DNA from: Dialister sp.
GTDB taxonomy: Bacteria > Bacillota > Negativicutes > Veillonellales > Dialisteraceae
Direction: 5' to 3'
Assembly (NCBI GenBank): GCA_022743185.1
Contig: JAIIJA010000001.1
Location: 1 to 40,467 of the forward strand
DNA length: 40,467 nucleotides
A program made the translations under genes and the position numbers. Under the pieces are notes generated by a model that made no database searches, was not told the DNA's origin, and was given only the letters and a program-made list of their open reading frames with translations. Shown here one piece after another: positions 9,308-26,686 of the stretch; positions within the stretch are counted from its first letter, which is position 1, and every line of letters begins with the position of its first letter.

Positions 9308-10969
9308 ATGTCTAACGAATCCCTGAAAGCTAAACTTGCAGCTTACAATGACACCTATGCAAAACAGTGCGCAAAACATCCGGAAAGAGTTGGTCTGAAA
9401 CACAAGAACCTGTACACCCCACTCGATCTCGAAGGTTTCGACTATGAAAAAGACCTCGGATTCCCGGGCGAATATCCATACACCCGTGGCGTACAGCCGA
9501 CCATGTACCGTGGCAAACTCTGGACCATGCGTATGTATGCTGGTTTCTCCACCGCTGAAGAATCCAACAAACGTTACAAATACCTGATCGCTAACGGCGG
9601 CACCGGCCTGTCCTGCGCATTCGACCTGCCAACCCAGATCGGCTATGACTCCGACGACAAAATGTCCGCTGGCGAAGTTGGTAAAGTAGGCGTAGCTATC
9701 GACTCCCTCTACGATATGGAAAGACTGTTCGACGGCATTGACCTCGGCAAAGTTTCCACTTCCATGACCATCAACGCACCGGCTTCCGTACTGCTGGCTA
9801 TGTACATCGCTGTAGCTGAAAAACAGGGCGTTCCGGCAACTGCTCTTCGCGGCACCATCCAGAACGATATCCTGAAAGAATACGCAGCTCGCGGCACCTA
9901 CATTTTCCCGGTTAAACCGTCCATGCGTCTGATCACCGATATCTTCGAATACTGCTCCGCAAACGTACCGAAGTGGAACACCATCTCCATTTCCGGCTAC
10001 CATATCCGTGAAGCAGGCTCCACCGCTGCTCAGGAAATCGCATTCACCATCGCTGATGGTATCGCATACATCGAAGCAGCTCTGAAAGCTGGCATGAAGA
10101 TCGATGAATTCGCAGGCCGTCTGTCCTTCTTCTGGAACGCTCACAACAACGTACTCGAAGAAGTTGCAAAATTCCGTGCATCCCGTCGTCTGTGGGCTAC
10201 CATTCTGAAGGAAAGATTCCATGCAGAATCCAGCAAGTCCATGAAACTGCGTTTCCACACCCAGACCGCTGGTTCCATGCTGACCGCTCAGCAGCCAAAC
10301 AACAACATCATCCGTGTTGCTCTCCAGACCGCTGCAGCAGTTATGGGCGGAACCCAGTCCCTGCACACCAACTCCCGCGATGAAGCTCTGGCTCTGCCGA
10401 CCACTGAATCCGTAACCATCGCTCTGCGTACCCAGCAGATCGTAGCTTACGAATCCGGCCTGGCTGACGTAGTTGATCCGCTCGGCGGCTCCTACTATGT
10501 TGAAGCTATGACCAATGCTATCGAAGCAGAAGCTAAAGAATACATCCGCAAGATCGATGAAATGGGCGGCGCAGTAGAAGCTATTGATAAAGGCTACATC
10601 CAGAAAGAAATTCAGGACGCTGCTTACGCTTGGCAGATGTCTGTTGAATCCGGCGAAAGAACCATCGTTGGCGTCAACAAATTCACCATGGAAGAACCAC
10701 CGGTTACCGGCCTGCTGAAGATCGACGCATCCGTTGGCGAAAAGAAGAAAGCTCAGCTCGCTCAGGATAAAGCAAACCGTGACCAGGCTAAAGTTGCTGA
10801 AGAACTGGCTAAACTTGAAAAAGCAGCTCAGACTCCGGCTGAAGGCCCAGACCACATCAACCTCATGCCAGTCATCCTCGACTGCGTACGTGCATACTGC
10901 ACCGAAGGCGAAATCTGCGGCGTTCTGCGTAAAGTTTACGGCGAATACAAACCGCACAACACCCTCTAA
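9308..10969 (+). CDS. Methylmalonyl-CoA mutase, split-type large (substrate-binding) subunit (MCM-1)
   Basis: PYTRG, RMYAGF (Tyr specificity residue), [27 protein letters not shown]; no C-terminal B12 domain. Confidence 0.92.
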
Positions 10970-11031
10970 TCTAAGGGCAGCCTGAAGCAAAGATAATTAC
11001 ATTACTCAAATATTTCTGGAGGTAATTTACA

Positions 11032-11427
11032 ATGGCAGACAAACGTATCAGAGTACTGGTAGCTAAACCGGGTCTTGATGGACATGATCGTGGCGCAAAA
11101 GTTATTGCTCGTGCACTTCGTGATGCAGGCATGGAAGTTATTTACACCGGTCTTCGCCAGACCGTTGAACAGATCGTTGAAGCAGCAGACGCAGAAGACG
11201 TTAATGTTGTAGCTCTGTCCCTGCTCTCCGGCGCTCACAACACCCTCTTCCCGGAAGTTGTTGAAGCACTGAAGGCTAAAGGAATGGGCGACGTTCTCGT
11301 AGTTGGCGGCGGCGTAATTCCGGAATCCGATATCCCAGGCCTGAAAGAAGCTGGCGTAAAAGCTATCTTCACTCCTGGCACACCAACCAAAGAAGTTATC
11401 GACTTCATTAAAGAAAACGTAAAATAA
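11032..11427 (+). CDS. Methylmalonyl-CoA mutase, cobalamin-binding small subunit
   Basis: [13 protein letters not shown] (DxHxxG), SLLSGAH and GGG motifs. Confidence 0.95.
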
Positions 11428-11547
11428 TCGACTTTTAGACTGACTAGCTTGACAGTTTATTAGTTGAAATGTAGCTTGCATGGGGCTGGGGGGATACTCA
11501 GTCCCATTGCAACTATATTATTTACTCTTCGAAAAGGCGGTGCATCC

Positions 11548-12486
11548 ATGGAATTTTCTATGAAGGATTTTTGGAATGGATCCAGACGTGCCTTAGCGAG
11601 AGCAATTACCATCGTTGAAGACGAACGGGATGGATTTGAAGATGTCATGAAAGAGATCTATCACCATACCGGTCGTGCACAGGTCATCGGTATTACTGGT
11701 GCGCCTGGTGCGGGTAAGAGCACACTGTCAGATGCCCTCATTAAGCAGTTCCGTAAGCAGGGCAAAACTGTAGGTATCGTAGCCATCGATCCTACGAGTC
11801 CATTCTCCGGCGGCGCCATCCTTGGTGACCGTATCAGAATGAACGACCTGACCTTGGATAAGGGTGTTTATATCCGTAGTATGGGTACGCGCGGCAGCCT
11901 CGGCGGACTTTCCCGCAAGACTGCAGATGCGGTCAAACTGATGGATGCTTTCGGTCTCGATGTCATTCTCATCGAAACAGTAGGCGTAGGACAATCAGAA
12001 GTTGATATCGTTAAAAATGCGGATACGACACTTGTTGTGCTCGTACCTGGACTAGGCGACGATATTCAGGCTATCAAAGCAGGTATCCTTGAAATTGGTG
12101 ATGTATTCTGCATCAACAAATGTGATCGCGATGGCGCAGATCGTTTGAACGTCGAAATCGAAATGATGCTTGATCTGGGCGAAGCTCAGAACTGGCGTCC
12201 TCCGATTGAGAGAACGATCGCGAACAAAGATCAGGGCGTGGCGGAAGTTGTAGCAGCTCTGGGCGAACATAGAAAGTACCTCGAAGAGTCTGGTCTCCTT
12301 GAAGAAAGAAGACGTGAACGGGCTAGAAGCGAGATGCTGGAAATGATTCACGATCGCATTTCCCGTCATATTGAGGAAAATATTTCCTCGACGGGTGAAT
12401 TTAGTGACTGCGTGGAACAAGTCTTTGAACGGAAGACAGATCCGTTCACGGTCGTTGATTCCATTGTAGGCAAAATATTCAAATAA
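11548..12486 (+). CDS. meaB: MeaB/ArgK GTPase chaperone of MCM (copy 1)
   Basis: GITGAPGAGKS, DPTSPFSGGAILGDRIRM, ETVGVGQSE, NKCD. Confidence 0.95.
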   Translation: MEFSMKDFWNGSRRALARAITIVEDERDGFEDVMKEIYHHTGRAQVIGITGAPGAGKSTLSDALIKQFRKQGKTVGIVAIDPTSPFSGGAILGDRIRMNDLTLDKGVYIRSMGTRGSLGGLSRKTADAVKLMDAFGLDVILIETVGVGQSEVDIVKNADTTLVVLVPGLGDDIQAIKAGILEIGDVFCINKCDRDGADRLNVEIEMMLDLGEAQNWRPPIERTIANKDQGVAEVVAALGEHRKYLEESGLLEERRRERARSEMLEMIHDRISRHIEENISSTGEFSDCVEQVFERKTDPFTVVDSIVGKIFK

Positions 12487-16340: not shown

Positions 16341-16371
16341 GAGACTGTAGTCATTTAGACAATTTCATATG

Positions 16372-16640
16372 GCTGGCAGATGCGAAAGCATAAAAGAGAA
16401 TCCGGTCTAAGCCGGAGCGGTCCCGCCACTGTAAGGAGGAGTCTCTCACAGTTATGTCACTGGGCGAAAGTCTGGGAAGGCGTGAAGAGATGAGGAGCCC
16501 GAGCCAGGAGAACTATCTGCCAATGAATCACCGCGAAGGAAGTAGGGGTCTACTCAAGACATGATTTGATTCTGTCTAAGATCAGGGCTTGTGAGAAGAT
16601 CCGTATTTCCGTCAACCTGCGAGAGATGGGGAGGGGATTG
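16372..16640 (+). promoter_or_regulatory. Cobalamin riboswitch (class I-like, with kissing-loop hairpin)
   Basis: GAGAAtCCGG..CCGG, CGGTCCCGCCACTGT, CACTG..GGGAAGG, GAGCCAGGAGAAC B12 box; downstream ACCTGCGAGAGATGGG hairpin. Confidence 0.92.
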
Positions 16641-16829: not shown

Positions 16830-19103
16830 ATGGATGAAGTAACAAAAGCAACATCCGCGGAAAATCAGGAAAGACAGCTTACCGATAAGGAATTGGAAGC
16901 GATTCTGAAACAGTCGGAAGGCAAAACCGATTTCCCACAGGTCACATTTGATGAATTCACACCACCAACCTACGAGGAATGGGTTGATGCGTGCAACGCT
17001 CTTCTGAAGGGCAAGCCGTTTGATAAGCTGATGTATACCAAGACGTATGAAGGCATCACTTTTAGCCCGATTTATACCCTGCATACGGGTCCGGACGCAC
17101 AGGAAGCGATCCTGCCGACCGATGACTATCCGGGTATGGGGGACTTCATGCGTGGCCAGAAAGTCAATGGTTACAAAGAAGAACCATGGGGCATTGCACA
17201 GTCTTGTGATGAAGCACTTCCAAAGGAAAATAATGAGCTCCTGAAACACGAGATCGATCGTGGTTCCACGGTATACAATGTACGCCTTGATGCATCCACT
17301 CTACATGGCATCGATGTGACTGATGCTGAAAAGCCAGGTGAAACCGGCGTTTCTCTGACCACTCTCGAAGATGTGCATAACCTTCTGGACGGTCTGGATC
17401 TTGCAAAGTATCCATTCATGATGTATACCGGCGAATCTGCACTGGCACCGCTTGCTATGGTGGCTGCCGCAGTCAAAGCACAGGGAAAAGATGTGTCCGC
17501 GCTTCATGGCGTGATCGGTGGAAGCCCGTTGACACAGCTGCTGACTGATGGCAAGAATAAGGAAAGCCTTGAAAAAGCATACGACCAGATGGCAGAGACC
17601 ATCCGCTGGGCTTGCAAGAATGCACCGAGCGTAGCGACCGTATTCATCACTTCCGATGTATTCTCTCTGGGCGGCGCACAGGCCGTACAGGAAATCGCAT
17701 ATACCTTCGGCGTCGCTGTAGAGTATGTCCGTGAAATGCTGAAGAGAGGCATTTCGATCCATGATATCGCACAGTCCTTCTACTTCGGCTTCAATGTAGG
17801 CGCTACGTTCTTCATTGAAATTGCAAAGCTTCGTGCAGCTCGTCAGGTATGGTCGAACATCATGAAGGCTTTCGGTGCAGAAGAAGAAGATCGTTCGATG
17901 AAGATCCATGCAAAACCGGCATTCTTCACAAAGACCATTTTCGATGTGGGCGTGAACATGCTCCGCAACACCACCGAAGCATTCTCTGCTGTCGTTGGCG
18001 GTGTAGATACCTACGAAAATGCACCGTATGATGATACTGTCAGAAAAGGTGATGAATTCTCCCGCCGTATCGCTAGAAACCTGCAGATCATGCTGCAGGA
18101 AGAATTCGGCATGCTGCGCCCGATCGATGCAGCTGGCGGCTCCTGGGCGATTGAAAAACTCACCAAAGAGATGGCAGAAAAGATCTGGGCTGAATTCCAG
18201 AAGATCGAATCTCTGGGCGGCATGACCAAAGCCATCGAAGAAGGCTATCCGCAGAAGGAGATCAAAGCCGTCCTCGAAAAGCGCTTCAAAGCACTGGATC
18301 TTAGAAAAGACCGTGCGGTCGGCAATAACATGTATCCGCTGATGGGCGAAGTGCTCCTCGAAGCTCGTCCGGAAGATACGAAAGCCATTAAGCAGGAACT
18401 TGGCGATGCAGCCAAAGCATACCGTGCAGACCTTGATCTTGCCTTCAGAAGCCAGGCACTGGCAGAACTGAAAGCAGCTGGTGAAGGTGAAGTCGTCAAC
18501 AAAGCAGCTGCAGCAGCTGCTGCCGGTGCGACCATTGGTGAGATCAATGAAGTCGCTGGTAATGCAGAAGGCTCCGTTGCTATCGAAAAGATCGATGCAC
18601 ACCGCTGGACGGAACGCTTCGAAGCACTTCGCTTTGATACCGAAGCATATAAAGAAAAGACTGGCAAGAATGTCGAGATCTTCCTTGCAAACATGGGCAA
18701 GATCCCGCAGCATAAAGCCAGAGCAGACTTCTCCACCTCCTTCCTGCAGGTCGGCGAATTCAATGTCCATCTCAATAATGGTTTCCAGGATGACGAAGAC
18801 AAACCGGGCTCCCGCTGGGATAAGTGCGTAGAAGCACTGAAAGCTGGTGCTGATGACAAAGGCACGCCATATGATGTCGCTGTCATCTGCTCCACGGATG
18901 CGACCTATCCGGAAGATGTACCGGCTCTGGCTCCGAGACTGAAAGAAGTCCTCGGCGACGGCACCCTCTTCCTCGCAGGCGCAGCTCCAAAGGATCTGGA
19001 AGAGACCTACCGCAAGGCGGGCGTAGATGATTTCATCAGCGTCAAAGCAAACTGCTACGAAATTCTCCGCATGCTGCAGAAAAAGAAAGGAATGATTGAA
19101 TAA
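16830..19103 (+). CDS. mutA: Methylmalonyl-CoA mutase small/beta (non-catalytic) subunit (MCM-2)
   Basis: MCM fold ([37 protein letters not shown]) without catalytic or DxHxxG motifs; stop overlaps mutB start. Confidence 0.9.
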
Positions 19104-21301
19104 TGGCAAACACAAATCCTGATTTCACACAGCTGTCTCTGGGGGAACATCCACACTGCTCCTATGATGAGTGGAAGGAAAAGCTGGAAGCCAAGACCGG
19201 CAAAGGCTTTGATGCACTCTATGAACCGACCATGGAAAAGATCCCGGTCGCTCCCTTCTATACCAAAGATGTCTATGATGACTGCAATCATCTGGACTTC
19301 ATGAGCGGTATCCCGCCATTCCTTCGTGGACCGTACTCCACCATGTACGTTTTCCGTCCATGGACTGTTCGTCAGTACGCAGGCTTCTCCACTGCCGAAG
19401 AATCCAACGCATTCTACAAGAGAAACCTGGCAGCAGGTCAGAAGGGTCTGTCCATCGCATTCGACCTTCCGACCCACCGCGGCTACGATGCGGATAACCC
19501 GCGCGTTATCGGCGACGTAGGTAAAGCCGGCGTATCCGTATGCTCCATGCTTGATATGAACATCCTCTTCGACGGCATCCCGCTGGATCAGATGTCCGTA
19601 TCTATGACCATGAACGGCGCCGTTCTTCCGATCCTGGCATTCTTCATTTCCGCCGGCATCGAACAGGGCGTCGACAAGAAGATCCTTGCAGGTACCATTC
19701 AGAACGATATCCTGAAGGAATTCATGGTACGTAACACCTACATTTACCCACCGGCGATGTCCATGCGTATCATTGGTGATATTTTCGAATACACCACCAA
19801 GTACATGCCGAAGTTCAACTCCATTTCCATTTCCGGCTACCACATTCAGGAATGCGGTGCTACCTGCGATCTGGAAATCGGTTACACGCTGGCAGACGGC
19901 ATGGAATACATCCGCTGCGGCGAAAAAGCAGGTCTGCCGGTCGATGCATTCGCAAAGCGTCTGTCCTTCTTCTGGGATCAGGGCAAGAACTACTTCATGG
20001 AAGTCGCAAAGATGCGTGCAGCTCGTGTCCTCTGGGCAAAGATCCTCAAAGGCTTCGGCGCAAAGAATCCGAAATCCATGGCACTTCGTACCCACTCCCA
20101 GACCTCCGGCTGGTCCCTCACCGAACAGGATCCATTCAACAACATCGGCCGTACCTGTATGGAAGCTATGTCTGCAGCTCTCGGTCACACCCAGTCCCTG
20201 CATACCAACGCACTCGACGAAGCAATCGCTCTGCCGACCGACTTCTCTGCTCGTCTGGCTCGTAACACCCAGCTTTACATCCAGGATGAAACCAAAGTCT
20301 GCAAGATCATCGATCCATGGGGCGGCTCCTACTATGTGGAATACCTCACCAACGAGATCATCAAACGTGCATGGGCACACATTCAGGAAGTCGAAGCACT
20401 GGGCGGCATGTCCAAGGCTATCTCCACCGGCCTTCCGAAGATGCGTATCGAAGAATGCGCCGCTCGTCGTCAGGCAGATATCGACTCCGGCCGTGAAACC
20501 ATTGTCGGCCTGAACAAGTACAGACTGGCGAAGGAAGATCCGCTGAACGTTCTCTCCATCGATAACACCGCTGTACGTAACGCACAGATCAAACGTCTGG
20601 AAAAACTCAGAAGCATCCGCGATCCGGAAGCTGTCCGCCGCGATCTGGAAGCAATCACCAAGTGTGCAGAATCCCGTGACAACGGCAACCTTCTGGAAGC
20701 GGCTGTCCAGGCAGCACATGACCGTGCATCCCTTGGCGAAATCTCTGACGCTGTTGAAAAGGTATCCGGCCGCTTCAATGCAGTCATCCATACCATTTCC
20801 GGCGTATACTCCAATGAATTCGATGACACCTCCGAACTGGACGAAGCAAAGAAACTGGCTAACGAATTCGAAGCTCTCGAAGGCCGCCGCCCGCGTATCT
20901 TCCTCGCGAAGATGGGCCAGGATGGTCACGACAGAGGCCAGAAAGTCCTTGCTACCTCCTTCGCAGATATGGGCTGGGACGTCGACGTAGGCCCGCTCTT
21001 CCAGACTCCGGAAGAAGCGGCACAGGATGCCGTCGACAACGACGTTCATATGGTCGGCTTCTCTTCCCTGGCAGCAGGTCATAAGACCCTGCTCCCGGCT
21101 ATCGTCGAAGACCTGAAGAAACTCGGCCGTGAAGATATCCTCGTAGCTATCGGCGGCGTTATCCCGCCACAGGATTACGAATTCCTGTACGATCATGGTG
21201 CAGTTGCTATCTTCGGACCAGGCACCAACATTCCGAAATGCTGCATCAAGCTGCTCCAGATGCTCGTAGACCGTGCTAAGGAAGAAGCTAAGGCAGAATA
21301 A
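19103..21301 (+). CDS. mutB: Methylmalonyl-CoA mutase large/alpha catalytic subunit (MCM-2)
   Basis: [44 protein letters not shown]. Confidence 0.96.
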
Positions 21302-21347
21302 GGTCGCCTAACGTTTTCTGACACTGTCATTCAATGCGTATCGGCAA

Positions 21348-21420
21348 AGGGTTCAAGGTTCAGGGTTCAGGGGTTTACTGGAAATGGTGATACCCTAACC
21401 TGAACCCCGAACCCTGAACC
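21348..21420. repeat. Inverted heptamer (GGTTCAG/A) array hairpin
   Basis: gggttcaaggttcagggttcagggg ... cctaacctgaaccccgaaccctgaacc. Confidence 0.75.
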
Positions 21421-21699
21421 AATGACCATTTCGCAGCTGGAATAGTGACAGAAGCGTTTTAAAGAAATCTGATTTCTTGTCCTGCGCGGAGCCGAGGGCG
21501 ACCTCGGCTCCCTAGCAGGGCTTGCAATCTGCATCGAGTGATAGCCCGGAAAACAGAGAAATGGTGATGGATAGTCACCATGCCCGGTCACTATCACGAC
21601 CAATGAATCACGCTTGATACACATCATATTTTCATTTGGCAGTCCTCCTTTTCATGATCCATCTGCAGGGGGGAAGCCAGGAAAGGGAGGGTATGACAA

Positions 21700-22875
21700 A
21701 TGCCTGAAAACAATGATGATTTAAGACCCAGCTGGGTACCGGAAGAAAAAAATCCTGAATTTGCCTGCTCTGTCATGCGTGGGATAGATACCACGGCAAA
21801 CAGCATCACAGGGGCGAAGGAATACCCGGATGCTCCGCTTCGAAAAGTGCCGCTTCGTAAGAAAATGACCGTCGAACAGTACATCGACGGTGTGGCCAAA
21901 GGGGATCGTGTGACGCTGTCCAAGGCCATCACCTTGATCGAAAGCAATGCGCCGAAAGACTTTGACAAAGCGCAGCGCGTGCTGCAGGGACTTCTTCCTA
22001 GAACGGGCAAGGCTCTCCGTATCGGTATCACCGGTGTACCGGGAGCCGGCAAATCGACCTTCATCGAGTCCTTCGGTCAGATGCTCTGCCATCAGGGCTA
22101 CAAAGTCGCCGTCCTTGCCGTCGACCCGACCTCATCCATCACCGGCGGCTCTATCCTCGGGGATAAGACACGTATGCAGAACCTGTCTCGTGAACCAAAC
22201 TGCTTCATTCGACCCTCTCCATCCAAAGGCACTTTGGGCGGTGTCGCGAGAAAATCCCGCGAGACTATGCTCCTCTGCGAAGCTGCCGGCTGTGATGTCA
22301 TCCTCGTCGAGACCGTCGGCGTCGGTCAGTCGGAGACCACGGTCCGCTCCATGGTCGATTTCTTCATGCTCGTCGTACTGACAGGGGCCGGCGATGACCT
22401 CCAGGGCATCAAGAAGGGTATCATGGAGCTTGCTGATGCCATCGTTGTCAACAAAGCGGATGGGGATAACCTCGAGCGGGCCAAGGTCGCGCAGGGCGAG
22501 TATGAAAGAATGTGCGAATTCATCCGTCCGGCTACCGAAGGCTGGAAAACCCATGCTTACCGCTGCTCCGCGATCAAGAAAACAGGTCTTTTGGAGCTGT
22601 GGGCCGTCATGCGTGAATTTGAAAAGGTCACAAAGAAATCCGGCATTTTTGAAAACCGCAGACAGCGCCAGATCCTTGACTGGGTGAACAGCATGATCGA
22701 TGAACATCTGCATAATCTCTTCTTTGAAGATCCGCTCATCAAGAGCCGTCTGCCATCCGTTAAAGCGGCTGTCCTTGCGGGCGTCGTCTCCCCAAGTCAG
22801 GCCGTTACGGAGCTTATCCACTCCTTCGATATGGATCGCGCATCCATCAAGCATTTGGAAGAAACGGAAAAGTAA
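21700..22875 (+). CDS. meaB: MeaB/ArgK GTPase chaperone of MCM (copy 2, N-terminally extended)
   Basis: GITGVPGAGKS, GGSILGDKTRM, ETVGVGQSE, NKAD; SD gggagg. Confidence 0.95.
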   Translation: MPENNDDLRPSWVPEEKNPEFACSVMRGIDTTANSITGAKEYPDAPLRKVPLRKKMTVEQYIDGVAKGDRVTLSKAITLIESNAPKDFDKAQRVLQGLLPRTGKALRIGITGVPGAGKSTFIESFGQMLCHQGYKVAVLAVDPTSSITGGSILGDKTRMQNLSREPNCFIRPSPSKGTLGGVARKSRETMLLCEAAGCDVILVETVGVGQSETTVRSMVDFFMLVVLTGAGDDLQGIKKGIMELADAIVVNKADGDNLERAKVAQGEYERMCEFIRPATEGWKTHAYRCSAIKKTGLLELWAVMREFEKVTKKSGIFENRRQRQILDWVNSMIDEHLHNLFFEDPLIKSRLPSVKAAVLAGVVSPSQAVTELIHSFDMDRASIKHLEETEK

Positions 22876-22995: not shown

Positions 22996-23565
22996 TTGTT
23001 TACCAAAGATCTATACCTGGCCGGTGGGTCATTCCATGGGCTGCAGGAAGTGTTTTCCAGAATCTACGGTGTCGTAGATACCCAGGCGGGCTATGCGAAT
23101 AGCCGTATCGAATCTCCGACGAAGGAGCAGGTCGCCGATGGGAGCGCAGAGGCTGTGGAGTGCGTGAAGGTCACGTACAATCCGAAGAAAATCGACATCG
23201 GTATGCTCCTTAACGTATTCTTCACCATCATCAATCCTTACACCGATGGCATTCAGGGAAAATATGTCGGCCCGCAGTACCGAAGCGGGATCTACTACAC
23301 GAGCAAGGAGGATGTGCCGCAGATCAGCTACTTCCTCGTTTTCCTGCAGAATCGCGGTGTCGCTCATCAGATGACGGACAATGCTCTCGTTGTCAATGAA
23401 TTCGAAGGAGAAGGGAAGGTGCGCCCGAAGGTCAGGACAGAGATGAAAGAGCTTGTGAATTTCTATCCTGCGGACGAAGAGGAGCAGCACTATCTCAGAA
23501 GTCACCCGGATGCATATACCCCCATCGATATTCATTTGCTGGAAGAATTAAAAATCATACAGTAA
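22996..23565 (+). CDS. MsrA-fold protein lacking the catalytic cysteine
   Basis: LAGGSFHG in place of AGGCFWG; GYAN, GPQYRSGIYY, NFYPA retained; TTG start with aaggag SD. Confidence 0.8.
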   Translation: MFTKDLYLAGGSFHGLQEVFSRIYGVVDTQAGYANSRIESPTKEQVADGSAEAVECVKVTYNPKKIDIGMLLNVFFTIINPYTDGIQGKYVGPQYRSGIYYTSKEDVPQISYFLVFLQNRGVAHQMTDNALVVNEFEGEGKVRPKVRTEMKELVNFYPADEEEQHYLRSHPDAYTPIDIHLLEELKIIQ

Positions 23566-23612
23566 AAAGGAGCTGTGAAGAAATGAATCCGCATTTCTTC
23601 ACAGCCCTTTTT
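23566..23612 (+). terminator. Intrinsic terminator (repeated module)
   Basis: gctgtgaagaaatg-loop-catttcttcacagc plus T-run; near-identical copy at 40253-40300. Confidence 0.85.
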
Positions 23613-23625
23613 ACTTTGCTCTCAT

Positions 23626-24425
23626 TTGGTTCAGGGTTCAAGGTTCAGGGGTGAGGTGGCGCATTTTGTCATCCTGAGCGGAGAAAAAGGTCGTGTGTTA
23701 AAAAATGGCTTATCTGAAAATATGAGAACTGAGTCGAAGGATCTAAGTGCCGAGAAGTATAAAAACAGCCTTCCCCTCGAGGGGAAGGTGCCCCGAAGGG
23801 GCGGATAGGGCACTGGCGGTATGAAAGACAGTTGAAGAAAGTGGAGAGGTGCGCGGCACACGTGGGGAAAACGTGTGTCCCTGAGCCTCGAATAACAAAG
23901 ATTTCTCGCTTCGCTCGAAATGACGATACAGGGATGAGGATCATTCAACATCATTTTTTACCGCTATGGGGATCTATCCTCCGCCTTCGGCGCGCCCTTT
24001 CTTCAAGGGGCTACTCAGCTGTCATACAAATGCGCTGCCCCGCTGCCCCGAGCACCACCGATAAAGGCTACAAAATGAGAATACCGCTTCCCACGTATCG
24101 CAGCCTTCCCCTCTAGGGGAAGGTGCCCCGCAGGGGCGGATAGGGTGACTATGGCATGAAAGACAGCTGGGATAAGGTTTCCTGGCCACTCCTATGAGAG
24201 CTGCAAGTCCCCCGCGGCAGATGGAACGCGAAAATGAGATGATCGTTTCACATCGCCTTTTTTGGTCAGGGCTAGGGGAATGCTGATTCAATCTGACAAT
24301 GATGGGATCCGTGTTTCCTTGGCTCGTGGGCATGCTGTCCTTTGATTACGTTTGAAAGTTTCGCTTGAATGAGAAATGGTGGTGCCTCAAAGTAGTATTC
24401 AAGTCACCAGTCACTAGCCACCAGA
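23626..24425. repeat. Large mosaic intergenic repeat block
   Basis: Heptamer arrays, inverted CGTC-type REP pair, two CCTTCCCCTC palindrome copies (23767-23810, 24101-24145). Confidence 0.8.
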
Positions 24426-24469
24426 GGCTCCTCTCAATTTATTTTCTAAACGCATTCATGAATTTCTCA

Positions 24470-24498
24470 TTGACATGCATGCCAAATGGTGCTATCAT
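24470..24498 (+). promoter_or_regulatory. Sigma-A promoter of the tandem riboswitch transcript
   Basis: TTGACA-17 nt-TATCAT with TGn extension. Confidence 0.85.
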
Positions 24499-24511
24499 GT
24501 ACATAACCGAA

Positions 24512-24703
24512 TAAGAAAAGGTAAGTGCCTTAAAGGCTTAATAGGGAAGACCGGTGAAATGCCGGCACGGTCCCGCCACTGTAATGCAGAGCGAATCCAT
24601 AATGTCACTGAGAGATCGGGAAGACGGATAAGCGAGGAAGCAGAGTCAGGAGAACTGCTTATCTTGGATCACCGTTATGACCCACGAGCGATGGGAAGGG
24701 GAT
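24512..24703 (+). promoter_or_regulatory. Cobalamin riboswitch, tandem copy 1
   Basis: AATAGGGAAgaCCGGTGaaatgCCGG, CGGTCCCGCCACTGT, GGGAAG, GAGTCAGGAGAACTGC, CCCACGAGCGATGGG hairpin. Confidence 0.95.
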
Positions 24704-24716
24704 GTCTTTACAGATG

Positions 24717-24746
24717 TCTCTTTGCGTTCGTGCAAAGAGGTTTTTT
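24717..24746 (+). terminator. Attenuator terminator of riboswitch copy 1
   Basis: ctctttgc-gttcgt-gcaaagag-g-T6. Confidence 0.85.
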
Positions 24747-24778
24747 AATGGGGATTTCGGTACTTGAATAACTTCATA

Positions 24779-24974
24779 AGAAAACAGGTGCCCTGTAGGG
24801 CTTAATAGGGAAGACCGGTGAAAGACCGGCACGGTCCCGCCACTGTAATGCAGAGTGAATCCAACGAAGTCACTGATTTGAGGAGATCGGGAAGGCTGGA
24901 GGAGCGAGGAAGCAGAGTCAGGAGAACTGCCTGTTTTGTACAACCGTTTGACCTACGAGCGATAGGAAGGTGTG
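24779..24974 (+). promoter_or_regulatory. Cobalamin riboswitch, tandem copy 2
   Basis: AGGTGccc..gggcTTAATAGGGAAgaCCGGTGaaagaCCGG, CGGTCCCGCCACTGT, GGGAAGG, GAGTCAGGAGAACTGCC, CCTACGAGCGATAGG. Confidence 0.95.
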
Positions 24975-25004
24975 CTTGACTGCAAGTCCTTTTGACGTGC
25001 ATAT

Positions 25005-25039
25005 TCCACCCTTTTTCTATCCAAAAGGGTGGATTTTTT
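25005..25039 (+). terminator. Attenuator terminator of riboswitch copy 2
   Basis: tccaccctttt-loop-aaaagggtgga-T6. Confidence 0.85.
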
Positions 25040-25756
25040 GATTTCCTTCTGCGGCATGATGAGGATCAATGAAGCAGAGCCCCTTTTGCTGAGGATGGTG
25101 ACAGGGAACACTATTCTCCGAGTAGGTCAACGGAACTTCTCGCTTTTTCGCAAAGGCTGATGTCAGTAAAGATCTCCGAGCTTATCCGGAATCCGGCCTT
25201 GATGGCCCGGAGCATCCCTGTATGTGGATATCAGCGATACTATCGATGTAATGCCTTCGGGCTTTACATATACCTGTGGGGATTTTTCTCCATGGTTCAT
25301 CTCCTTTCCGGTGATGGTCATAAAGAAATTTCATTTCTTTTGGGAAAATGATCATCACCACCCCTTCTACGAATACTTCTTCGGAAGTGACTATATATGA
25401 TGTATTCCTCAGTATCTGAGGTTTACATATACCTGTGGGGTTTTCGTTCCCCATGGTTCATCTCCCTTCAGCGATGGTTTCAACAGGGAAATGGAATCAT
25501 CGCCCCCCTTTTACAGATCCTTCCCTTAGGGAAGTTCCTATAGGAGGATATTTCCTCCACTCTTGGCCGGCCTATCCGGCTGACTCGACCTCCTTGGGAC
25601 GTTATTGTCCTTCTGTCAGGATGGCATCAGGGAATGCCATCCTGGCTCCCTCTCTTTGGTAATAACTTTCTACGAAAGCTATTATACAGGTTCTCATTAC
25701 GGAGCCCAACCAGCTCCAACCCCTTTGGAAGCGGCGCATGTCGCTTCTCTTTTTTT
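25040..25756 (+). ncRNA. Candidate B12-regulated structured non-coding RNA with repeated modules
   Basis: No credible + strand ORF; two ~150-nt structural repeats (25245-25395, 25399-25542), four GAUGG..GGGAA hairpins, cUUCGg tetraloops and G-U pairs all favour the + strand; ends at terminator 25727-25756. Confidence 0.65.
25727..25756 (+). terminator. Intrinsic terminator closing the candidate ncRNA
   Basis: ggaagcggc-gcat-gtcgcttct followed by c-T7. Confidence 0.8.
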
Positions 25757-25868
25757 ATGCCAGATGGTATGAGTGACGCTCATGTAGTGTGGCTCCTCTC
25801 AAAATGAGAAAATGGTGGTGCGGCGCTGACTTCATAAAGCGCCGCACCACCACTTCTCACTCCTCACT

Positions 25869-25895
25869 AAAAAAAGCAGCCTGGGGCTGCTTTTT
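25869..25895 (-). terminator. Terminator of the HAD gene (symmetric A/T tracts)
   Basis: aaaaaagcagcc-tgg-ggctgcttttt abutting the stop codon. Confidence 0.8.
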
Positions 25896-26656
25896 CAAAT
25901 CCATCCAAACCGCCTGCATGCTTCATAGATGCCGTCTTCATCGGCCCGGCTGGTGATGTACTTGGCTTTTTCCTTGAGCTGTGGCTTGGCATTTCCCATG
26001 GCGATGGAGAACCATTCGGGGCGGAACATGGTGCGGTCATTCATGCCGTCGCCAAAGACAACGATGTCTTCATCCGGAATGGCGAAGCGGCGCTGAAGCT
26101 CCTTGATGCCGTGCTCCTTATGGATAGGCTCGATGAGCATGGTATCCGCACGGAACCAGACGTGAGGGAGTGGGCCCAAGGGGATCTCCGCTTCCTCCTG
26201 CTTGCTGCAGGCGATGAAGATCTTGTGGATGACGGAGGCAGTGTGAAAATCAAAAGCGGGGTCCACTTCCGTCTTGTAGTAGCGGTCTTTCACCTTCTCA
26301 AGGTAGCTGTCCGTAGTCGTGATGCGGTATTTCTCATTTCTGATCGCAAGCGCCCAGGGATGCTTCTCGCCGTCGATGGCAGAGAGCATCGCGAAGCAGT
26401 CTTCAAGTGCAAGACCTTCATCATAAAGGATCTTGCCGTCTATGGTGACCGCATTTCCTCCATCGGAGACAGCGGCTGTGATGCCAAGGTCACACGCGAC
26501 CTGCCAGGCATCTGCCTGAATGCGTCCGGTCGCAAGCGAGACGAAGTGCCCTGCCTTTTGGAGGCGTCGGATGGCTTCTCTTGTGCTGTCGGGATAGTCG
26601 GCAGTAAGCGGCGTGGTCAGCGTGCCGTCGATATCAAAGAAAAAGTATTTCTTCAT
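25895..26656 (-). CDS. Cof-type HAD-IIB phosphatase
   Basis: FFDIDGTL, LATGR, FGDGMND, AMGNA motifs; SD aaggagg. Confidence 0.92.
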   Translation of the reverse strand: MKKYFFFDIDGTLTTPLTADYPDSTREAIRRLQKAGHFVSLATGRIQADAWQVACDLGITAAVSDGGNAVTIDGKILYDEGLALEDCFAMLSAIDGEKHPWALAIRNEKYRITTTDSYLEKVKDRYYKTEVDPAFDFHTASVIHKIFIACSKQEEAEIPLGPLPHVWFRADTMLIEPIHKEHGIKELQRRFAIPDEDIVVFGDGMNDRTMFRPEWFSIAMGNAKPQLKEKAKYITSRADEDGIYEACRRFGWI

Positions 26657-26686
26657 AGGGCCTCCTTGGAGAATCATTTTCTTTCA

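Follow-up and report, generated by a model that had tools for sequence, protein, structure and literature searches.

The locus and its tandem cobalamin riboswitches

We analysed a 40,467-nucleotide (nt) stretch of Dialister sp. DNA, here called the window (assembly GCA_022743185.1, contig JAIIJA010000001.1, positions 1 to 40,467, forward strand), which contains a unit made up of a promoter, two cobalamin (vitamin B12) riboswitches in series and about 700 nt of sequence without an evident gene, referred to below as the tail. The unit lies in a succinate-to-propionate locus that carries two methylmalonyl-CoA mutase sets. Upstream of it are msrA, a mutA/mutB/meaB set preceded by a cobalamin riboswitch of its own, and another complete succinate-to-propionate operon. 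The next gene downstream is convergent to the tail, as a first-pass annotation of this DNA had stated, and encodes a HAD-type hydrolase (25895-26677, - strand). The features of the unit are collected in Table 1.

Both riboswitch aptamers matched the full length of the RF00174 model (positions 1-189) at scores above its gathering score of 31.5 bits, and the two are 84-92% identical to each other across repeat blocks. The first-pass annotation had described two complete cobalamin aptamers, each with a terminator, and these were indeed found where it had put them; in our scan, terminator-like hairpins followed by T runs occurred at six sites compared with 2.1 expected. In platform 1, folding gave a 12-bp antiterminator hairpin that overlaps the 5' arm of the terminator and is mutually exclusive with it, and this hairpin became the minimum-free-energy fold once the terminator 3' arm was omitted. 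In platform 2, the purine run contains the 3' strand of the preceding hairpin. Folding agreed with the earlier claim that a purine run pairs with the terminator 5' arm in both platforms, and a competing antiterminator and terminator were present in each. Transcriptional OFF switches are usually built in this way, and the OFF-switch layout proposed earlier is plausible for both platforms, with a putative direction of switching that is read from the layout. Just past terminator 2, the segment 25061-25079 is 84% identical (16/19) to parts of the two aptamers (24899-24917 and 24627-24645) and may be a vestige of a third one.

The promoter predicted at the head of the unit was present. Taken alone this match is not above chance, because the consensus scan gave three promoter-like sites against 2.3 expected; its weight comes from conservation. 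Of 28 related loci, 26 have TTGACA-17-TAnnAT 5-10 nt upstream of aptamer 1, and the remaining two have TTGACA together with a near-variant -10 box, so that a perfect -35 box is found in 28/28. On the + strand, the same scan left 25005-25656 free of promoter-like sites.

Table 1. Features of the riboswitch-RNA unit, in window positions
Feature	Position	Strand	Details and basis
Promoter	24470-24498	+	TTGACA-17-TATCAT with TG extension; consensus scan, 11/12 matches
Cobalamin riboswitch aptamer 1	24506-24676	+	RF00174, 93.2 bits
Expression platform 1	24680-24748	+	Hairpin 24680-24695; antiterminator 24696-24707/24712-24723; terminator 24716-24741 and T run
Cobalamin riboswitch aptamer 2	24769-24948	+	RF00174, 104.8 bits
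Expression platform 2	24949-25040	+	Purine run 24962-24974, able to pair with terminator 5' arm; terminator 25005-25033 and T run
Conserved single strand ATGATGAGGATC	25056-25067	+	Apparent conservation, read in oriented relatives
Core hairpin	25091-25118	+	10-bp stem, ACAGGGAA loop; fold; most widely conserved element of the RNA
Variable linker	25124-25264	+	25129-25237 unmatched in G001 and G002
Module 1	25265-25407	+	P1, strand TTCATCTCC, long P2 with GGGAA loop, CCCCTTCTAC, P3; model R1, 102.8 bits
Module 2	25424-25554	+	Model R1, 118.2 bits; covariation
Module 2, P1	25432-25440/25449-25456	+	Model R1
Module 2, single strand	25457-25470	+	Model R1
Module 2, P2	25471-25503	+	Loop AACAGGGAAAT; model R1
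Module 2, single strand	25504-25518	+	Model R1
Module 2, P3	25519-25534	+	Model R1
Module 3, degenerate	25571-25698	+	Hairpin 25615-25650 (12 bp) with TCAGGGAAT loop; model R1, 40 bits, E 5e-6
3' domain	25659-25756	+	Hairpin 25659-25685; invariant stretch ending ACAGGTTCTCAT (25682-25697); hairpin 25701-25717; terminator 25727-25748 and T run

Structure, strand and distribution of the tail RNA

The first-pass annotation had found no credible + strand open reading frame (ORF) in the tail, and our analysis bore this out. The longest ORFs in 25040-25760 encode 75 amino acids on the + strand and 90 on the - strand, and none of 11 tail ORF translations matched Pfam at E<=1. The region 24950-25900 had no Rfam match at the gathering score and thus belongs to no known Rfam family; at E<=10 there were 22 matches, all far below the cut-offs, 17 of them on a palindrome at 25792-25900, and none was an aptamer in the tail. 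DNA searches found the tail region in 23 of 24 same-genus genomes, with the last 520 nt 66-100% identical. When relatives were oriented on their riboswitches, no ORF was conserved, and the spurious ORFs held the same repeat in different frames. The gene 3' of the tail also differs, being the convergent hydrolase here, a glutathione-peroxidase-like gene in eight loci and a tRNA in one family of the order (f2; the families are labelled f1 to f4 below). The glutathione-peroxidase-like gene has its own promoter-like site (TTGAC...TATAAT) just past the conserved terminator of the RNA.

Folding and comparison resolved the tail into a core hairpin, a linker, a series of modules and a 3' domain. The upper stem of the core hairpin covaries (GGTG/CACT, GGCG/CGCT, GATG/CATC, ACTG/CAGT), while its lower stem and loop are fixed. 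The linker segment 25129-25237 is dispensable, because it is unmatched in the genomes G001 and G002, which are otherwise 98-100% identical. A generic module of ~130 nt consists of hairpin P1, the strand TTCATCTCC with a few pyrimidines, a long P2 with loop AACAGGGAAAT, the single strand CCCCTTTTTAC, a short P3 (CTTCC...GGAAG) and the end TNCCTATA. Species carry one to five copies; the window has two full modules and one degenerate one. The loops and junctions of the modules are nearly invariant while their stems covary, and the RNA as a whole holds three hairpins of 10-12 bp with CAGGGAA loops and a further GGGAA loop in module 1. In the 3' domain, a first hairpin leads into the invariant GTTATTATACAGGTTCTCAT, which 14 of 15 aligned species share without change and which has C as its first base in the window's own copy; then come a second hairpin, CCCCTTT and a terminator, with G-U pairs on the + strand. 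This last element is the closing + strand terminator announced by the first-pass annotation, and it is conserved.

The module structure was then assessed by covariation. We aligned 35 modules from 18 loci, annotated three helices and built from them a covariance model, R1, whose 44 matches from 22 sources were re-aligned; all 44 lie on the same strand as the riboswitches. In this alignment 88.4% of cells form standard pairs compared with 72.2% after shuffling (0 of 500 shuffles reached the observed value), and 170 cells are altered on both sides compared with 45 in shuffles, counts that are inflated and whose independence is overstated, because R1 itself guided the alignment and orthologues stand in it beside paralogous copies. 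Structures shifted by 1-3 columns left just 38-62% of cells paired, and compensatory change was seen at 22 of the 25 base pairs of the R1 structure. Across relatives, this comparison supported the helices. G-U was the most frequent pair at several positions (20, 23 and 20 of 44 sequences) and would be mismatched on the opposite strand, which identifies the + strand as the RNA.

These results bear on the possibility that the tail is a decayed gene, such as a former B12 transporter, or a functionless array of repeats. Riboswitches usually precede genes, the aptamer-like segment 25061-25079 hints at a past duplication, and repeat elements flank the unit. Yet compensatory changes preserve the helices, the repeats shift frame and have no Pfam match, the element is kept in two families, and an invariant 20-mer and an intact terminator persist though species are only 66-86% identical over the matched tail. 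Judged on its sequence, the tail is a structured RNA and not a decayed gene; the covariation contradicts that explanation, which, taken together with the functionless array, is highly improbable. Two further candidates were rejected. Small proteins on the - strand were considered since the complement of the joining strand (the single strand between P1 and P2) resembles a ribosome-binding site plus ATG, but the frames behind it are not the same in both copies, and covariation affects the P1 stem, which would be translated. A type III toxin-antitoxin system, with an RNA repeat as antitoxin, was dismissed as there is no conserved downstream ORF and the next gene varies among relatives.

We searched for the RNA more widely. 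R1 matched in 45 of 151 genomes drawn from the order, normally at a single locus; the exceptions were a genome that carries another copy at a distance of 1 kb and a locus divided over two contigs. By family, with the window's genome excluded, matches were found in 36/51 genomes of f1 and 8/9 of f2, and in none of f3 (0/51) or f4 (0/39). A pattern for the core hairpin occurred exactly once per genome in 35 of the 151 genomes, while a reversed-pattern control gave 0; it added a second f1 genus with a short RNA made up of the hairpin, one degenerate module and the terminator. Among 401 genomes drawn from the class, the hairpin was present in 13, all in f1 (7/14) or f2 (5/5). A strict module pattern, run against one genome each of ~185,000 species, hit 24 loci, 13 of them titled Dialister. 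Sixteen of the 24 were scanned with R1, and true modules were found in 5/5 of the scanned Dialister-titled loci and in four otherwise titled ones (bins from one study), whose R1 scores are identical to those of same-genus genomes; the remaining seven had no R1 module at the matched place and were chance matches. Within the window's genome, R1 found no module elsewhere at E<=0.1.

An Rfam scan of 36 RNA-bearing loci gave two cobalamin aptamers at 34 loci and a single one at the other two, and three genomes of the family that have no cobalamin riboswitch likewise have no RNA. At least seven species of the genus have the unit 7-9 kb downstream of the mutA riboswitch. Of the four strong cobalamin riboswitches in the whole genome, two form the tandem pair, one precedes a TonB-dependent receptor and one precedes mutA/mutB/meaB; the tail RNA is therefore one of only three B12-sensing outputs in the organism. 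Collectively, these data indicate that a riboswitch-gated structured non-coding RNA is very probably genuine at this locus, and that the locus represents a real family of modular non-coding RNAs, restricted to one lineage and not described before, that tandem cobalamin riboswitches control. Our literature search, with subscription-only papers and supplements outside its reach, found no description of the tail RNA. One locus (L061, G078 C1:877822-877930) has an extra module ~360 nt upstream of the tandem riboswitches, on the same strand, in addition to the usual downstream one.

What the RNA might do

The first-pass annotation had read the unit as a regulatory RNA induced by B12 starvation. Of this, a conserved structured non-coding RNA on the + strand behind riboswitches in two families is now established, and read-through is the part that we infer. 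We propose that the strong consensus promoter would fire constitutively and that each B12-bound riboswitch would terminate transcription, two OFF switches in series giving a steeper and tighter shut-off. At low B12, the polymerase would continue for ~700 nt to the conserved terminator, the whole forming one transcription unit, and the product would comprise the core hairpin with its ACAGGGAA loop, one to five tandem ~130-nt modules and the invariant 3' domain. This payload could act as a decoy that presents several copies of one binding surface and titrates a factor, with an RNA-binding protein as the likeliest candidate; a pathway would thereby be re-set during B12 lack. That the tail RNA is a B12-starvation-induced decoy is our tentative preference, which falls somewhat short of an even chance and in which read-through, mechanism and partner are all put together from the layout. 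We favour it because copy number varies, invariant loops and junctions sit on covarying stems, there is one locus per genome, the promoter suits an abundant product and no start region was found to be strongly complementary. Dialister and two related families might also, though we doubt it, have a dedicated B12-starvation RNA, a very abundant multi-module decoy set free by the tandem riboswitches, which would capture a global factor that is not known to be RNA-regulated and so re-programme translation or succinate-to-propionate metabolism without the cofactor. As for the captured factor, an RNA-binding protein or a component that recognizes a 16S-like pyrimidine strand can be suggested, with considerable reserve.

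Several observations weigh against a decoy. No partner can be named for it, and both known kinds of partner are unsupported: a six-frame search of the 98.2%-complete genome for CsrA (PF02599) gave 0 matches while control genomes were positive, and ANTAR-type hexaloop hairpins were not found in the RNA. A single ANTAR regulator is present in 148 of the 151 genomes of the order, including both families that lack the RNA. No further copy of the module or its hairpin was found in the genome, and hence a natural target bearing the motif is missing. A base-pairing RNA would be equally consistent with the pyrimidine-rich joining strands and with the Hfq that the genome encodes, read-through at low B12 is deduced from the parts of the unit, and the inflated covariation counts mentioned above belong here too.

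The two known kinds of partner were considered individually. CsrA recognizes GGA in loops. The RNA does present such loops, but a CsrA sponge was rejected as no CsrA gene was found. The substrate of ANTAR proteins is a pair of hairpins with hexaloops whose first base is A and whose fourth is G. In 24470-25760, the sole A..G.. hexaloop hairpin with a stem of 4 bp or more falls within terminator 2. Of the 148 genomes that carry the ANTAR regulator, 146 have one copy and two have two. An ANTAR decoy was therefore discarded: there is one regulator, but the RNA has no ANTAR-type hairpins and the distribution of the regulator is unlike that of the RNA. At one locus elsewhere in the window's genome (L095, G000 C86:1663-4821), a HisKA_2 histidine kinase adjoins the REC-ANTAR regulator, as in EutW/EutV. 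The window's genome gave 0 matches to EutB (PF06751).

Public sequencing runs were also compared with the unit. Two runs recorded as RNA (X8, X9), available as assembled contigs only, cover 24524-25082 and not the tail. For X1 and X3, which are only guessed to be RNA runs, assembled contigs extend over the riboswitches and over parts of the tail within 25217-25621. Contigs of three runs from two studies, which have no DNA run alongside, end at 25079-25082. This coverage speaks neither for nor against a transcript of the tail, its strand or its response to B12.

The joining strands make another function conceivable, that of a trans-acting, possibly Hfq-assisted small RNA (sRNA) whose TTCATCTCC, CCCCTTTTTAC and ACAGGTTCTCAT would pair with ribosome-binding regions at low B12. 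Such an RNA would repress, or less likely activate, messenger RNAs, and its action could equal the B12-sparing response imagined by the first-pass annotation, an idea that the target searches below neither support nor refute. We rate such a pairing RNA as rather unlikely, and it is the main rival of the decoy. The joining strand resembles the anti-Shine-Dalgarno end of the 16S ribosomal RNA of a relative, and its complement reads as a Shine-Dalgarno box, a spacer and ATG. Hfq is encoded in the genome, and the 3' domain has the usual build of an sRNA, with a hairpin, a 12-nt invariant single strand, a second hairpin and a terminator with 7-8 U. The C-rich base-pairing sRNAs of Firmicutes of the RoxS/RsaE type carry repeated unpaired pyrimidine motifs that can cover Shine-Dalgarno boxes. 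The tail RNA shares the unpaired pyrimidine-rich repeats with them and differs in being 5-10 times longer, riboswitch-gated and without a convincing target.

The target searches argued against pairing of this kind. The best non-self duplex with the joining strand reached -30.4 kcal/mol compared with a mean of -15.7 (standard deviation 4.6) over 2258 crude start regions, and was no outlier. With the whole RNA, the mutase-locus starts 16830, 19103, 11032 and 21700 ranked 1645, 2133, 2231 and 291 of 2258, and neither the whole RNA nor the 3' strand gave a start region that stood out; together, these searches covered 2208-2258 crude start regions of a single genome. The gene calls behind these searches were crude, and the starts 7445, 9308 and 13040 in the first mutase operon, called on the wrong strand, were left out. 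The CTCC core is altered to CTTC or CTTT in 4 of 35 aligned modules (L015_1, L016_2, L020_1, L027_1), which would weaken Shine-Dalgarno pairing, and the three invariant single strands plus an invariant loop in each module go beyond the needs of a seed.

Other pairings were tried and set aside. The complement of the loop was found only inside ORFs or by chance. For the second joining strand, ~100 places with the CCCCTTTTTAC complement were found, where it forms one arm of a palindrome that recurs through the genome; the other arm carries the same CCCCTTTTTAC motif, and thus CCCCTTTTTAC is shown only to be the local terminator tail. ATTTCCC upstream of start codons (27 compared with 13 expected) is a twofold excess and too weak to use. 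A possible mimic of 16S ribosomal RNA is kept as a lead: ~14 of 16 positions of the joining strand agree with the 16S 3' end of a relative, and the loop is weakly like the stretch before helix 45.

The terminator-like appearance of P2 followed by CCCCTTTTTAC would suit a different role, in which the modules are sensors or cis-acting attenuators, each hairpin and U strand serving as a weak terminator that responds to another ligand or factor in a 1.25-kb multi-input leader whose output is the 3' domain or a downstream gene. The same hairpin-plus-U end closes a palindromic element at ~100 places in the genome, and a glutathione-peroxidase-like gene follows on the same strand in eight related loci. 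That gene, however, has its own promoter-like site beyond a strong terminator and is not present here, f2 has a tRNA in its place, no Rfam aptamer was found in the tail at E<=10, and attenuators in series would serve no evident purpose where there is no gene for them to regulate. We consider this role improbable.

To our knowledge, riboswitch-gated regulatory RNAs so far amount to a handful of cases, tied to ethanolamine or propanediol use. The B12-riboswitch-controlled RNAs that the first-pass annotation called on, EutX, Rli55 and AspocR, are established: according to the accessible part of PMC5449094, the ANTAR protein EutV is bound and sequestered by Rli55 and EutX, AspocR acts as an antisense RNA against pocR, all three being gated by a B12 riboswitch, and the long form of EutX and Rli55, made without B12, bears binding sites and no coding sequence. 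The tail RNA resembles EutX (Enterococcus faecalis) and Rli55 (Listeria monocytogenes), as that part of the source describes them, in that a cobalamin riboswitch and terminator are placed to gate a longer non-coding RNA, an architecture found here in 36/36 loci. Unlike them, it has two riboswitches in series and a ~700-nt payload with one to five three-hairpin modules; it has no ANTAR-type hexaloops, no eutB was found in its genome, and the locus lies beside methylmalonyl-CoA mutase genes. The proposed decoy would thus share the logic of EutX and Rli55 and differ in payload. As with Listeria AspocR in the same partial source (PMC5449094), a riboswitch gates a non-coding RNA that runs towards a convergent gene. 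Here, unlike AspocR, a conserved terminator stands 139 nt (25757-25895) short of the end of that gene; given this terminator, and because the downstream gene varies among relatives, a cis-antisense role is unlikely. CsrB and RsmZ offer a further likeness in having several hairpins with the same GGA-containing purine loop and a copy number that varies between species, whereas here no CsrA was found and only 3-4 such loops lie within far larger modules. Tandem adenosylcobalamin riboswitches with separate expression platforms are known (Table 1 of PMC9481103); in the accessible part of that paper they control ORFs, with no mention of EutX, of sRNAs or of a missing ORF, while there is no ORF here.

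The tail RNA is a separate RNA family with a new payload and no Rfam match, in common human gut and oral anaerobes that rely on a B12 enzyme for their energy metabolism, and it directly follows the B12-repressed copy of the mutase operon. Its clean build, with a promoter, two OFF switches, modules and a fixed 3' end, offers a ready system for responses to B12 lack beyond uptake, and the ACAGGGAA hairpin with the module may lead to a new RNA-protein or RNA-RNA recognition motif. If the partner were a known regulator, the RNA would be a new member of a known scheme; otherwise it would define a new regulatory circuit. A cofactor-sparing response run wholly by RNA, if this is what it is, would be the first outside the ethanolamine and propanediol systems.

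Mutase operons and repeats around the unit

A third RF00174 copy in the window (16361-16534) lies upstream of the second mutA/mutB/meaB set (16830-22875), placing a B12-dependent enzyme under a B12 switch, and a split-type mutase operon (9308-12486) has no riboswitch. The riboswitch-controlled mutase paralogue may be the low-B12 form. In Veillonella parvula, a cobalamin riboswitch ahead of mutA has been used experimentally, according to the accessible part of PMC9600662.

Repeats of several kinds surround the unit. A family of GAGAAA(A)TGGTGGTGC palindromes flanks it at 24370-24440 and 25790-25860, and an exact 12-nt direct repeat, GGCTCCTCTCAA, stands on either side at 24426 and 25791; these flanking repeats may simply be extragenic palindromes of the usual kind, or they may mark an insertion of the unit. 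A palindromic terminator-like repeat with the core GTAAAAAGGGGCTGTGAAGAAATGA...TCATTTCTTCACAGCCCCTTTTTAC occurs at ~23562-23650, at ~40292 and at ~100 places in the genome, at scattered intergenic sites that are often close to contig ends, and it probably explains the 318 contigs of the assembly. In metagenome contigs, 23650 is joined to 24213 or 24328, and 23929 is joined to 24402, a few other letters lying between them; the junctions across 23650-24328 suggest that strains differ by insertions or deletions in the ORF-poor region that separates msrA from the promoter. An element ATTGAATCAG(T/C)GTTTCCCTA, which also occurs as inverted pairs, was found just 5' of the ribosome-binding sites of several genes (for example at G000 C38:1819, C48:1778-2101 and C299:6242).

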